DNA of 22,380 bases, taken from IMG/VR virus record IMGVR_UViG_2778261510_000012, one strand, 5' to 3'. Shown here piece after piece: positions 5,100 through 15,195 of this stretch. Both the position numbers and the translations under genes were made by a program. Source of the DNA: a virus. Lineage: Duplodnaviria > Heunggongvirae > Uroviricota > Caudoviricetes. The notes beneath the pieces were generated by a model, which was not told the DNA's origin, did no database searches, and saw nothing but the letters and a program-made list of their open reading frames with translations. How positions within the stretch are numbered: position 1 is the stretch's first letter; each line of letters begins with the position of its first letter.

Positions 5100-5157
5100 A
5101 AAAAGGGCGGCAGAGCAGCCACGGAGTAAAACTGATACCGCCAAACGTCACCAGAAA
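5100..5157 (-). ncRNA. dicF: DicF small regulatory RNA
   Basis: Minus-strand sequence TTTCTGGTGACGTTTGGCGGTATCAGTTTTACTCCGTGGCTGCTCTGCCGCCCTTTTT matches the DicF sRNA as I recall it (about one mismatch), ends in a GC stem plus U-tract, and lies about 170 nt upstream of dicB. Confidence 0.75.
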
Positions 5158-9522: not shown

Positions 9523-9945
9523 GTGGCAAAAGTTTTTACACAAGAAGAGCGAGAAAAAATTAAAGGGCAGGTTGTTGAACTCGTACGCCAGAGTGGGCGT
9601 GAGACGTTACGGCAACTGGAAGTCAAAACAGGTGCGACAAGATATCTGATGAGCGTTCTCGCAAGAGAGCTGGTTGCCAGCGGCGATGTATACAACTCTG
9701 GTTACGGGTTATTCCCGTCTGAACAGGCGCGTAAGGACTGGCAAAATGCCCGTAAAAAGCTCTCAAGGGCAAAGCTGAAGAAACCATCTGCGGTTGATTC
9801 GGACCTTATCTGGTCATTACCTGACGGAGAAATACGTCGCTACGACAGGCGTCAGAACATAATCTGTCGCGAGTGCCGGAAGAGTGAAGTTATGCAGCGC
9901 ATATTGTCGTTTTATCAGGGGGATGTTCGGTATTTATTGAAGTGA
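9523..9945 (+). CDS. Hypothetical 140-aa basic protein downstream of the replication initiator
   Basis: ORF with AGGAGG RBS and apparent GTG start; no recognisable motif; sits where lambdoid phages usually encode a helicase loader but is too small for one. Confidence 0.45.
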   Translation: MAKVFTQEEREKIKGQVVELVRQSGRETLRQLEVKTGATRYLMSVLARELVASGDVYNSGYGLFPSEQARKDWQNARKKLSRAKLKKPSAVDSDLIWSLPDGEIRRYDRRQNIICRECRKSEVMQRILSFYQGDVRYLLK

Positions 9946-10012
9946 CGAGATTCAAGTGCATTAGTTCAGATGCAAATTGACTTTTTGTGGCACAGGGTAG
10001 AGCTAGCGTGGT

Positions 10013-10038
10013 TGTCCGCTTTGTGCCAACAGCGGACA
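10013..10038. other. Inverted repeat / hairpin between convergent genes
   Basis: TGTCCGCT - 10 nt - AGCGGACA perfect 8-bp stem; no strong U-tract. Confidence 0.4.
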
Positions 10039-10091
10039 TTATAGATGGTATATGTAGAAAGTGAACATGCGTAGATTGTATGATTTAGCCG

Positions 10092-10316
10092 TCACTTAAT
10101 TATTGGATAACTCACACAAGTATGACCGTTGCTTATCGCATACATTTGGTTTCCCTTAAGATTTACAAATGGAAATGTCGTATACTCATAATTTATAGAG
10201 GTCATATTAAATGTAAGGAATTTATCTTCAAGTTCTAATTTTGTAGAGTGGGCAGGGTATGTTCCTTCATTTTTCATTGTGATAATAAAACCGATAGGGA
10301 AAAATGTAAAGCACAA
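10092..10316 (-). pseudogene. Probable frameshifted 3' portion of the HNH-like gene
   Basis: A +1-frame ORF overlaps the end of 10274..10900; a single-base insertion in the A5/T5 run at 10300-10304 would fuse both into one ~265-aa frame; the track start is TTG and the first ATG has no SD. Confidence 0.4.
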
Positions 10317-10900
10317 ATAAATGCCACATGTCCTTCGTTCATAAATGCTACACTTTGAGCGGATATGTGCATTCTGTGTGGGTAAAACCAGTAGTAAATA
10401 TCATGAGTTTCCTCAAAACTTGAATTTTTACCCAAAACATAATCCTTTAAAGGTGTATAGAAGGGGCTATCTACGGGTTCTTTTTTACAATCTTCAACTG
10501 AAGTTGCTGATAGCACGTGCCCAATCATAGCCTTAGTGAAAGATATGCTATCAAAAGGTATTCTAATGAATGGATATACATTCATACCATTCATATATCG
10601 CCTTAACTGTTCTTTAAAGGACTTTGTTACATTTTCAATTGCAACATCGAGCCCACCTAATACCTTATTGTTACAGTGGCTGCAAATGGTTCTGAAATAA
10701 GAGCCATTTTTAGCATTTAATGGTTTAACTGGTTCCTGAATACCAAAAAATTCGCTAACTGTTTTCTGCAAAACAGGGCCTAAGGTTATGGCGCACTTTG
10801 GAGGAACATGATCTTTTGTGAGCAAGCCATATTTCCCACAAATATTGCAATAACCTTCAGTAATGCCATTGTGCTTCCATCGTTCACTAATTTTCGTCAT
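10274..10900 (-). CDS. AT-rich cargo gene encoding a protein with an HNH-like Cys/His motif
   Basis: 208 aa; RBS GAGGGA; CNICGKYGLLTKDHVPPK (CxxC-x9-DH) and CSHCNNK motifs resemble the zinc-bound HNH fold with an unusually long spacer; low GC relative to flanks. Confidence 0.6.
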   Translation of the reverse strand: MTKISERWKHNGITEGYCNICGKYGLLTKDHVPPKCAITLGPVLQKTVSEFFGIQEPVKPLNAKNGSYFRTICSHCNNKVLGGLDVAIENVTKSFKEQLRRYMNGMNVYPFIRIPFDSISFTKAMIGHVLSATSVEDCKKEPVDSPFYTPLKDYVLGKNSSFEETHDIYYWFYPHRMHISAQSVAFMNEGHVAFICALHFSLSVLLSQ

Positions 10901-11524
10901 TTTTATTCCCTCAGTAGCATAAGCTATCTATACGTTTTTTAATCCTATCAAAGATACAACTTAACGTCAGGAAAATGATAGTGTTTATCTAAGTAATACA
11001 ATTAACTTCAACGCGTGACAGTCTGCTTTTCGCTCAAAGCGGACTAGAAGGTTAGCTTGCGTCGGACTTGGCGTATTTAAAGAAGTGCTGGTGGTGACTG
11101 GTTGTTGTGTTCCATTTCTACAGAACAAAATCACAGAAACTATACCCAATAGTTGTATTGAATCACTGACGAGACAGCCTCATATTTATCAGGACTGGTG
11201 TACGTCCAATACAGGAGGTTGTGGTGCTGGTTCTCAAATGTGCGCTGGCTATTGCTGCTGTAATGGCAATTTATTGCCTTGCTGTTGTTCTTATGGATCG
11301 CCTTTCTGACTGATTTCATATTGGCGAGGTAACGGGAGTTAAGTAGAATGGCTGCGGGTGCTTGAGGCTATCTGTCTCAGGCATGAACACCAAAGGCAGA
11401 TAGAGAAAAGCCCCAGTTAACATTACGCGTCCTGCAAGACGCTTAACATTAATCTGAGGCCATATCTATGCTCTACACACATAGGTTAGCCTCTTACGTG
11501 CCGAAAGGCAAGGAGGAGCAGTCT

Positions 11525-11680
11525 ATGAAGCAGCAAAAGGCGATGTTAATCGCCCTGATCGTCATCTGTTTAACCGTCATAGTGACGGCACTGGTAACGA
11601 GGAAAGACCTCTGCGAGGTACGAATCCGAACCGGCCAGACGGAGGTCGCTGTCTTCACAGCTTACGAACCTGAGGAGTAA
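11525..11680 (+). CDS. hokD: Hok-family type I toxin (HokD/RelF-like)
   Basis: 51-aa translation MKQQKAMLIALIVICLTVIVTALVTRKDLCEVRIRTGQTEVAVFTAYEPEE matches HokD/RelF as I recall it; AGGAGG RBS 8 nt upstream; the track ORF from 11468 is an in-frame extension. Confidence 0.85.
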   Translation: MKQQKAMLIALIVICLTVIVTALVTRKDLCEVRIRTGQTEVAVFTAYEPEE

Positions 11681-11750
11681 GAGACCTGGCGGGGGAGAAA
11701 TCCCTCGCCACCTCTGATGTGTCAGGCATCCTCAACGCACCCGCACTTAA

Positions 11751-11768
11751 CCCGCTTCGGCGTTTTTT
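11751..11768 (+). terminator. Weak terminator-like hairpin after hok
   Basis: CCCGCTTCGGCG with TTCG loop followed by TTTTTT; the stem is short. Confidence 0.35.
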
Positions 11769-11823
11769 CCGTTGATTAACTCTAGTTATTAGAGAACCGA
11801 ACTTTTATTGATGGGGCAGGGAG

Positions 11824-12216
11824 ATGAAGAAACTTGTTTTAGTCGTAGGTGTAATGATTGCAACAGTAATGTTGGGAGGGTGTGCAGCAAAGGTCGATCC
11901 AGCGTTGAAAGCAGAAGCAATGAAGCCACTAACATGTAAAGATGAAAAGCAATGTGACTTTTATTGGAAACGAGCGCAATTCTGGTTGGCTAATAATTCC
12001 TCATGGAAAATTCAAACGGCGACAAACACGCTAATTTCCACTTATAACCCTTCACCAAATAGCCCATTCCTCGCTTATCAAGTGAGTAAAATGCCAAATG
12101 AAGATGGATCCGCAAGAATTTTCATCAAGCCTTTTTGCGATAATATGTTTGGCTGTCAACCAAACCCCTATCAGGCAATTGTTTCCTTTAAAAACTTCGT
12201 TAAAACTGGGCAGTAA
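11824..12216 (+). CDS. Putative lipoprotein (130 aa)
   Basis: Signal peptide with lipobox-like LGGC (MKKLVLVVGVMIATVMLGGCAAK); RBS GGGCAGGGAG; four further Cys in the mature part. Confidence 0.6.
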   Translation: MKKLVLVVGVMIATVMLGGCAAKVDPALKAEAMKPLTCKDEKQCDFYWKRAQFWLANNSSWKIQTATNTLISTYNPSPNSPFLAYQVSKMPNEDGSARIFIKPFCDNMFGCQPNPYQAIVSFKNFVKTGQ

Positions 12217-15040: not shown

Positions 15041-15115
15041 GGCCCTTTAGCTCAGTGGTGAGAGCGAGCGACTCATAATCGCCAGGTCGCTGGTTCAAAT
15101 CCAGCAAGGGCCACC
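15041..15115 (+). tRNA. tRNA with CAU anticodon, tRNA-Ile2 (lysidine)-like
   Basis: 75-nt cloverleaf: acceptor GGCCCTT/AAGGGCC, D-arm GCTC-AGTGGTGA-GAGC, anticodon loop CTCATAA, T-arm GCTGG-TTCAAAT-CCAGC, 3' ACCA; closely parallels E. coli tRNA-Ile2; Met cannot be excluded from sequence alone. Confidence 0.85.
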
Positions 15116-15118
15116 ATT

Positions 15119-15195
15119 CCGCCACCAGCTCATCTGGATAGAGCATCAGCCTTCTAAGTTGATTGTGCGAGGTTCGAGCACCCGGTGGCGGACCA
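15119..15195 (+). tRNA. tRNA-like sequence with Arg (UCU) anticodon loop, probably degenerate
   Basis: D-arm GCTC-ATCTGGATA-GAGC and anticodon arm TCAGC-CTTCTAA-GTTGA are canonical and the 3' end is ACCA, but the acceptor stem has one mismatch, position 8 is C, and the T-stem pairs at only 3 of 5 positions. Confidence 0.4.

Follow-up and report, generated by a model that had tools for sequence, protein, structure and literature searches.

We have analysed a window of 22,380 nt whose gene content is that of a lambdoid, Qin/Rac-like prophage, with attention to the interval 10901-11680, which is bordered on the left by a minus-strand gene and on the right by the end of a Hok reading frame. The left part of the window carries, reading rightwards, an integrase, a large exonuclease, dicB and DicF, ydfABC, a repressor/cro pair and YdaT. 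These are followed by a replication block whose last gene is a DUF977 gene. Beyond the hok region come DUF968/YdfU, RusA and Q, with two tRNAs and the late genes further on. The hok module is thus placed between the DUF977 replication-region gene and the DUF968/RusA/Q block. Features of this part of the window are as follows.

5105-5156: DicF, identified by an Rfam match
9523-9945: DUF977 gene, the last gene of the replication block
10274-10900, minus strand: gene forming the left border of the studied interval
11224-11313: hydrophobic ORF of 29 aa, with a GTG start and GGAGG 6 nt upstream
11468-11680, plus strand: mok-type upstream frame, starting at an ATG that is in frame with hok and 57 nt upstream of the hok start
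11512-11516, plus strand: hok Shine-Dalgarno (SD) sequence GGAGG, 8 nt before the hok ATG
11525-11680, plus strand: hok coding sequence, 51 aa and a stop, MKQQKAMLIALIVICLTVIVTALVTRKDLCEVRIRTGQTEVAVFTAYEPEE
11663-11666, plus strand: TACG motif at the Tyr47 codon, a putative editing site

An earlier note on this DNA described the Hok frame as intact, HokD-like and provided with a ribosome-binding site, and this description holds. The frame matches Pfam PF01848 (HOK_GEF) with 81.6 bits (cutoff 22), and the protein is identical, residue for residue, to UniProt HOKD_ECOLI. The PGAP label for the toxin in matching E. coli genomes is hokD, PHROG 251 ('MokW-like host killing') matches the frame with an E value of 8e-33, and the NCBIfam Hok models also match, with scores below their cutoffs. 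The hok SD region of the window carries two rare substitutions, found in 2 of ~130 copies. By analogy with K-12 hokD, where TadA carries out A-to-I editing (Tyr to Cys), the TACG motif may be an editing site; such editing of hokC/D/E at the aligned position has been described (PMC5630033).

The frame that opens at the mok-type ATG (11468-11470, 8 nt after a GAGG) gives a 70-aa Hok with an N-terminal extension. This exact 70-aa mok-hok product is recorded on 59 contigs, and the 70-aa frame is annotated in VT2-Sakai as 'MokW-like host killing'. The in-frame mok is the second and smaller lead to come from this analysis, as it would imply that an extended Hok of 70 aa is produced.

The interval has further content upstream of the hok module, where ~435 bp are mosaic DNA unrelated to it. 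Its first bases, from 10901 to ~11020, belong to the divergent upstream gene, and the next stretch, 11021-11335, is conserved as a block of its own, which occurs in ~2,545 E. coli genomes and carries no RefSeq annotation. The 29-aa ORF is intact in all 25 of the copies sampled, with conservative replacements only, and the alignment reveals a conserved promoter-like site for it. Some submitters name it 'membrane protein'; Pfam, PHROGs and NCBIfam gave no match, and a literature search for the peptide found nothing. This ORF lies outside the hok module, and Sp5-type copies of the module occur without it. A 74-aa Cys-rich ORF at 11085-11309 was judged spurious, with its start removed by a 14-nt deletion in ECONIH1 and with no family match. 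The conserved and unannotated 29-aa membrane-type ORF is a side observation that may be worth a specialist's attention.

The slot just upstream of the hok module is a cargo hotspot whose contents vary by genome. They include a 269-aa PHROG-21495 gene, a 340-aa gene, a DUF262 gene with an AAA ATPase, a methyltransferase with QueH, a DUF4209 gene and, in K-12, relBE. The 269-aa gene adjoining the module is frameshifted in the window. A PADLOC scan of Hok and its neighbours for defence systems returned no match.

Extent and conservation of the module

The module is a self-contained hok/mok/sok unit of ~430 bp (~11336-11768). In an alignment of five copies from differing mosaic contexts, similarity extends from ~11336 to ~11762, and column entropy across 99 distinct viral-contig copies gave the same limits. 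Upstream of ~11336, unrelated DNA is found in the Sp5, 689R5 and Rac-type copies, all of which retain the whole module. Judging from these alignments, the unit is a ~430-bp moron and not a 600-bp leader. The earlier note was right to place the promoter and a Sok-like control upstream of hok, but the ~600 bp that it allotted to them contract to the proximal ~190 bp (~11336-11524).

By megablast and blastn, hokW-sokW of VT2-Sakai (Sp5) shares 92.7% identity with the 441-nt unit 11340-11780, and the copies in mEp460, a Rac-type phage and elsewhere share 93-96%. Of 5426 complete E. coli genomes, 4290 carry a 141-nt core of the leader, the median being 2 copies and the maximum 8. The tac, fbi, anti-SD and Sok promoter elements described below are conserved far more tightly than synonymous sites.

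The predicted hok mRNA and the predicted Sok antisense RNA

The elements of the plus strand are listed here in order.

11321-11349, plus strand: candidate hok promoter (-35 TTGGCG at 11321-11326, 17-nt spacer, -10 TAGAAT at 11344-11349), from a consensus scan
11356-11768, plus strand: predicted full-length hok mRNA of ~410 nt, from +1 (~11356) through the U-run that follows a weak terminator
11356-11367, plus strand: tac element, GGGUGCUUGAGG
11368-11377 and 11394-11403, plus strand: arms of a 5' leader stem-loop, CUAUCUGUCU/AGGCAGAUAG, from the Rfam structure line and folds
11410-11460, plus strand: closed anti-SD hairpin, formed by the anti-SD/ucb GCCCCAG (11410-11416) and CUGAGGC (11454-11460)
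11489-11493, plus strand: putative dcb, GCCUC, partner of GAGGC (mok SD region, 11456-11460) when the RNA refolds to the target hairpin, from the Rfam structure line and folds
11687-11710, plus strand: 3' UTR stem-loop, GGCGGGGGAG AAAU CCCUCGCC, from the fold
11730-11742, plus strand: fbi element, CCUCAACGCACCC, the complement of tac apart from one bulged C
11753-11768, plus strand: weakened intrinsic terminator, CGC-UUCG-GCG and a U-run

The Rfam covariance model RF01794 (sok) matches the hok-sense strand over its full length (model positions 1-157) at 11356-11530 (112.6 bits, gathering score 59, E value 3e-26); the match ends at the hok AUG. Compared with the consensus of the model there is one 16-nt insertion, which is exactly the GCGTC-loop-GACGC hairpin. 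An Rfam match to the ceN48 snoRNA (24 bits vs 70) was dismissed as chance. The site at 11321-11349 probably functions as the hok promoter and would put +1 near 11356, at the start of the Rfam match; its -10 and the bases that follow are kept across unrelated upstream contexts. Both ends of the predicted hok mRNA are placed by analogy with R1 (PMC9841398).

The tac element has alternative partners, namely fbi, the segment 11374-11384 just downstream (metastable hairpin) and the anti-SD (ucb). Its pairing with fbi comprises 12 bp and one bulge, with a duplex energy of -21.5 kcal/mol, and in the minimum-energy fold of the 415-nt RNA (z -6.2) the 5' end is closed on the 3' end through tac and fbi. 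Of 115 distinct homologues, at least 95% retain the tac-fbi pairs, with a few GC-to-AU double changes, and across the homologues pairing fades immediately upstream of 11356. The earlier note had proposed that the leader be compared with the fbi, tac and ucb elements of known hok/sok loci, and counterparts of all three were found. It had also noted a stem-loop at 11376-11400, which is real, although that span is mostly loop and the arms lie at 11368-11377 and 11394-11403.

The mok SD, GAGG at 11456-11459, is buried in the closed GCCCCAG/CUGAGGC hairpin, whose upper part consists of two TTAACATTA repeats and GCGTC/GACGC. Folded as an isolated 61-nt sense fragment, this hairpin has an energy of -17.8 kcal/mol (z -5.0). 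The nascent 55-mer folds into the metastable hairpin, with tac paired to 11374-11384, and a 110-nt fragment folds into an open form, in which tac and the anti-SD GCCCC (11410-11414) pair and enclose the 11368-11403 stem-loop. These folds of the 55-nt, 110-nt and 61-nt sub-fragments match the conformations described for R1 (PMC9841398), and the role of dcb is assigned by analogy with the same system (PMC9841398). Switching between anti-SD and dcb, as expected of the family, is thus predicted in silico. The minimum-energy fold of the 3'-trimmed hok RNA did not switch spontaneously to the open conformation, a result that is not counted against the model because the sub-fragments show the open form.

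By analogy with R1 (PMC1635323, PMC9841398), the stem-loop at 11687-11710 in the 3' UTR is likely to be the road-block that would set where the processed, translatable mRNA ends. The stem of the terminator at 11753-11768 is cut to 3 bp in the window, a minority form seen in 6 of ~130 copies, most of which have CCCGC-UUCG-GCGGG; a terminator scan did not detect it. Formation of the 3' end may therefore differ.

On the minus strand, the following features were predicted.

11511 to 11483, minus strand: Sok promoter (-35 TTGCCT at 11511-11506, 17-nt spacer, -10 TAACCT at 11488-11483)
11400-11476, minus strand: predicted Sok-type antisense RNA, ~77 nt, from folds and an R1-like architecture
11476 to 11462, minus strand: predicted 5' single-stranded tail of Sok, ~15 nt
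11461 to 11409, minus strand: predicted stem-loop of Sok, 23-bp interrupted
11408 to 11400, minus strand: predicted U-rich tail of Sok, CUUUUCUCU

A putative Sok antisense gene of the kind that typifies the family, with promoter, 5' tail, stem-loop and U tail, can accordingly be read from the minus strand. The -35 and -10 of its promoter are identical, base for base, to those of Sp5 sokW and are nearly invariant among homologues. A second promoter-like site on the minus strand (11549-11520) was considered as the Sok promoter and dropped, as 11511-11483 is the homologue of the validated promoters of sokW and R1. In R1, Sok starts ~7 nt beyond its -10 and has a recognition tail of 11 nt (PMC1635323); by analogy with R1 (PMC1635323) and sokW (PMC8621323), Sok of the window would start near 11476, and its 3' end is placed in the same way.

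The note had reported the direct repeats TTAACATTA at 11417-11425 and 11443-11451 around a GCGTC/GACGC hairpin. The coordinates are exact, and these are the sole two copies in the 22 kb window, where 0.17 would be expected by chance; two or more matches arose in 3 of 100 shuffles. The 9-mers are 26 bp apart, with GCGTC at 11427-11431 and GACGC at 11438-11442 between them. The repeats had been taken for a separate element flanking the hairpin. In the predicted fold they instead pair with each other via G-U in the Sok stem, of which they are the two arms of the middle helix and GCGTC/GACGC the tip; that they belong to the antisense control was correctly foreseen. From 11465 to 11405 (61 nt), the minus strand folds with -28.7 kcal/mol (z -6.3), compared with -17.8 for the same bases of the plus strand. 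The antisense fold is the stronger because the G-U pairs of the TTAACATTA copies become A-C mismatches in the sense RNA. Notable polymorphisms among homologues fall, within the Sok hairpin, only in the loop (11433) and the bulge (11426), and the extended hairpin is also found in hok loci of Kluyvera, E. albertii, E. ruysiae and Shigella.

Proposed function, alternative readings and the variable Sok tail

The region contains the sequence and structural elements of a hok/mok/sok locus and is nearly identical to a locus that has been tested. We are therefore confident that it is a complete and autonomous type I toxin-antitoxin module of the HokD/HokW clade, carried as a ~430-bp moron in a lambdoid prophage. 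As such the system is already known: this is a routine copy of an intact hok/mok/sok, which ranks with the best-understood toxin systems under RNA control, and a near-identical allele has been tested at the bench. With PGAP labelling the toxin hokD and Rfam modelling the leader, the finding as stated matters little.

The course of events that we infer for this module, including transcript ends, processing, toxicity and biological role, is the following. The promoter at 11321-11349 would give a hok mRNA of ~410 nt, in which tac (11356-11367) would pair with fbi (11730-11742) and the anti-SD GCCCC (11410-11414) would lock the mok SD (11456-11459), and the full-length RNA would therefore be stable but untranslatable. 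Slow trimming from the 3' end would remove fbi, and tac would then capture the anti-SD; the region of the mok SD and start would refold to the target hairpin, and ribosomes could start at mok, in frame with hok. Meanwhile, constitutive transcription from the antisense promoter (11511 to 11483, minus strand) would supply a short-lived Sok of ~77 nt, the body of which would be a long terminator hairpin with the two TTAACATTA copies as middle helix and GCGTC/GACGC as tip. The Sok tail (11476 to 11462) would seed pairing with the target hairpin, translation of mok and hok would be blocked, and the duplex would be cleaved. Were Sok synthesis to stop, whether on prophage induction, loss of the element or shut-off of transcription, Hok would be made and the inner membrane depolarised. 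Its role, as taken from Sp5 hokW-sokW, would be to aid lysis and phage release after induction.

We consider it unlikely that the module is structurally complete but silent or decaying, and rides along with neither killing nor antitoxin activity. In earlier tests several chromosomal hok loci, hokA, hokB and hokC among them, failed to bring about post-segregational killing (summarised in bioRxiv 10.1101/2025.08.07.668861), and the window itself has a short terminator stem, rare substitutions beside the hok SD and, in the adjoining frameshifted 269-aa gene, a hint of prophage decay. Against such a state, however, all elements of the module are intact, the tac, fbi, anti-SD and Sok promoter are held more tightly than synonymous sites, and the closest tested relative is active (PMC8621323), the Sp5 copy working without a canonical terminator. 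The earlier note would have given up an expressible toxin if the leader had proved identical to that of a characterised inactive chromosomal hok locus; the leader is in fact near-identical to that of the experimentally active hokW-sokW (PMC8621323).

Very improbable is an orphan hokD left without its relBE driver, with a promoter and control elements spread over ~600 bp of upstream DNA. The absence of relBE, on which this picture was built, was confirmed: tblastn of the whole window with the K-12 RelB and RelE proteins found no similarity (best E 4.7-8), and membership in a K-12-type relBEF operon was rejected, there being no RelB/RelE in the window. The 625-bp interval 10901-11524 also has no RefSeq-annotated gene in matching genomes, as such a reading would have it. 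The regulatory elements, however, all lie within ~190 bp, and the DNA above ~11336 is swapped for unrelated sequence in the Sp5, 689R5 and Rac-type copies, whose modules are complete. It was thus a misreading to regard the toxin as retained without the K-12 driver, as it is the K-12 locus that is a truncated derivative and the leader type of the window that occurs in the 4290 of 5426 genomes. Least credible of all is a reading of the TTAACATTA repeats as DNA-level features, either sites bound by a protein or the target-site duplication left by a small hairpin element on insertion, for although the 9-mers are exact at their 26-bp distance and the intervening 16 nt are an insertion relative to both the Rfam consensus and R1, the strand asymmetry (-28.7 vs -17.8 kcal/mol) is expected of an RNA stem and not of a DNA site, homologues vary only in loop and bulge, and the same extended hairpin in Kluyvera, E. 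albertii, E. ruysiae and Shigella makes it old, with no recent insertion. An ancient duplication is conceivable as the origin of the hairpin extension.

With the region read as an autonomous hok/mok/sok module, its most variable part is one further feature.

11461-11482: hypervariable block comprising the predicted Sok 5' tail, the target-hairpin apex in the hok mRNA and the codons flanking the mok ATG

Copies for this comparison were chosen by an exact 23-mer adjoining the block. Among 95 distinct HokD/W-type copies, nucleotide diversity in 11461-11476, leaving aside the mok ATG, is 0.42, compared with 0.03-0.05 in the leader, Sok promoter and hok codons and 0.04 at hok four-fold sites; the block is thus ~10 times as diverse as the four-fold (synonymous) sites of hok. 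The mok ATG, which lies in the predicted Sok target, is invariant in all 95 copies although it is inside the hypervariable block. At least 20 alleles of the tail block occur among the 95 distinct modules; the major alleles all keep the reading frame open, and nearly all alleles hold the target hairpin at -13 to -15 kcal/mol. Co-resident copies had different Sok-tail alleles in 5 of 6 genome sets, a small sample of six sets in which ~91% would be expected to differ by chance.

The pattern of tail diversity fits selection for toxin-antitoxin pairs that do not cross-react. We tentatively suggest, as a possibility falling somewhat short of probable, that the 15-22 nt for the Sok tail and target apex (11461-11482) are a specificity cassette under diversifying selection. 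If this were true, co-resident prophages would carry orthogonal pairs unable to neutralise one another, in the manner of immunity types. A literature search found no paper describing a hypervariable Sok-tail pattern. The hypervariable tail is the only lead with some novelty to come from this locus. The variation is sharply confined to this tail in prophage modules that are otherwise nearly identical; like the 29-aa ORF, it may merit a specialist's attention, and it would make antitoxin cross-talk between co-resident prophages directly testable.

Comparison with hokW-sokW, R1 and K-12 hokD

The closest tested relative is hokW-sokW of the E. coli O157:H7 prophage Sp5, in which HokW is toxic and sokW, under the control of its own promoter, neutralises it (Takada et al. 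2021, PMC8621323). Inactivation of the sokW -10 through TAGGTTAG to CCGGCTCG (primer YO-421, promoter-less construct; PMC8621323) releases HokW toxicity (PMC8621323). After mitomycin C, sokW falls and HokW rises (PMC8621323), and hokW-sokW roughly doubles phage release (PMC8621323). Over 413 nt of the module the window is 92.7% identical to this locus; the tac, the anti-SD, the extended Sok hairpin with both TTAACATTA copies, the Sok -35 and -10 and the fbi are identical. The Hok proteins share 47 of 51 residues and differ at the C-terminus (TAYEPEE in the window, VDYESEK in Sp5), and both loci have a 70-aa in-frame Mok-Hok frame and a lambdoid prophage as carrier. The allele of the Sok 5' tail and target loop differs at 6 of 16 positions (CATATCTATGCTCTAC in the window, TCAATCCATGCTGAAC in Sp5). 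The flanks and the position in the phage differ as well, the Sp5 copy being located beside ea22-like genes near the genome end, and so does the 3' end, Sp5 having no canonical terminator.

With the archetype, hok/mok/sok (parB) of R1, the window shares the same elements in the same order from tac through fbi: tac, metastable hairpin, anti-SD/ucb, mok ATG, dcb, an antisense promoter inside mok, hok SD, 3' road-block hairpin and fbi. Even the C-A mismatch of the anti-SD against GAGG is the same in both (PMC9841398). R1 Sok folded alongside has the same layout as that of the window with a shorter stem; the window Sok would be ~77 nt compared with 64 nt in R1, its stem carrying the 16-nt insertion. 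The mok and hok starts are 57 nt apart and in frame in the window, whereas in R1 they are 58 nt apart with mok in a separate frame, and the mechanism that couples mok to hok may therefore not be identical. Hok is only ~44% identical to R1 Hok, a figure stated for HokW (PMC8621323), and the R1 module is borne on a plasmid, that of the window on a prophage.

K-12 hokD (relF), the third gene of relBEF in the Qin cryptic prophage, encodes a Hok protein identical to that of the window, and the prophage neighbourhoods are related (DUF968/ydfU, Q). Only 11511-11768 of the window aligns with K-12 Qin DNA (97.7%), such that similarity begins 14 nt before the hok ATG. K-12 hokD keeps the SD, the coding sequence, the 3' UTR and fbi, and lacks everything upstream of 11511, namely the promoter, tac, anti-SD, mok start, Sok hairpin and Sok -10. 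In K-12, relE ends at the break, where the leader should be and where the window has a full hok leader. On this alignment, relBE-hokD of K-12 is best described as a derived, truncated form and the window as the common, intact one. The value of the present analysis is corrective: the K-12 relBE-hokD arrangement is the odd one, and most E. coli carry the autonomous form.

Hypervariability of the predicted Sok tail

The segment at 11461-11482, which spans the predicted 5' tail of the antisense RNA Sok and the apex of its target hairpin, is hypervariable. Across 95 distinct HokD/W-type copies, nucleotide diversity was 0.42 in this block versus 0.04 at hok four-fold sites. At least 20 alleles of the block were found, within which the mok ATG is invariant, and the stability of the target hairpin is kept despite the variation. 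The Sok-tail allele in the window is the commonest one, and differs from sokW, the tested homologue from Sp5, at 6 of 16 positions. One matching genome, Enterobacteriaceae MGYG-HGUT-00110 (L144), carries two hok/sok modules in tandem, with matches 562 bp apart, differing tail alleles and differing Hok N-termini.

Region upstream of hok and prophage setting

The following features were located outside the hok module:
10274-10900 (-), upstream gene, first 200 residues of the 269-aa family phrog_21495
11021-11044, hairpin GTCTGCTTT-TCGCTC-AAAGCGGAC, marking the left boundary of a conserved block of 315 bp
about 11157-11185 (+), candidate promoter-like site TTGAAT-17-CATATT, conserved, from one alignment of copies (A3)
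11224-11313 (+), unannotated hydrophobic ORF of 29 aa (MLVLKCALAIAAVMAIYCLAVVLMDRLSD), starting at GTG, with GGAGG 6 nt ahead of the start codon
5105-5156 (-), DicF sRNA (Rfam, 75 bits)
15041-15195 (+), tRNA-Met(CAT) and tRNA-Arg(TCT), downstream of Q

DicF and the tRNA pair are both typical of lambdoid prophages of the Qin-like and Stx-like kinds. Comparison of the window with matching loci L001, L002 and L007-L010 revealed a slot at about 9950-11020, bounded on one side by a DUF977 gene and on the other by the block of conserved sequence that precedes hok, in which the cargo differs by genome. Examples of cargo include a PHROG-21495 gene, DUF262 with an AAA ATPase, a methyltransferase with QueH, a DUF4209 gene and, in K-12, relBE. 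The slot resembles a hotspot for accessory or defence genes of prophages. In the window, the gene at 10274-10900 matches UMNF18 at 100% identity over the first 200 residues of the 269-aa family; a T6 run at about 10299-10304 is short by one T, resulting in a frameshift, so that the gene is a pseudogene unless the missing T is a sequencing error. At the position of the 11021-11044 hairpin, ECONIH1 has GTCCGC, which replaces a U-G pair with C-G.

The 29-aa ORF, preceded by the candidate promoter-like site, ends 8 nt before the candidate hok -35 element. It is intact in all 25 copies sampled, with conservative substitutions only. Pfam, PHROG and NCBIfam gave no match for it and a literature search on the peptide found nothing. 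Some GenBank submitters have named it 'membrane protein'.

The hok 3' end and a candidate editing site

The hok terminator (11753-11768) has a stem of only 3 bp, lacking GG relative to CCCGC-UUCG-GCGGG. This shortened form is a minority allele linked to the following downstream gene, into which transcription could possibly continue:
11824-12216, lipoprotein-like gene of 130 aa, phrog_16082

Within hok, the Tyr47 codon TAC lies in a TACG motif (11663-11666); TadA A-to-I editing (Tyr to Cys) at this motif has been reported for K-12 hokC/D/E (PMC5630033).

Reading frame of mok

Some Kluyvera copies (e.g. L136) have no ATG at the mok start position. In the window, the mok and hok ATGs are 57 nt apart and in frame (11468-11680, +), so that a 70-aa extended Hok is predicted. 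In contrast, mok is out of frame with hok both in Rac442-type alleles, which have a 65-nt spacer, and in loci of the plasmid R1 type, where the spacing is 58 nt.
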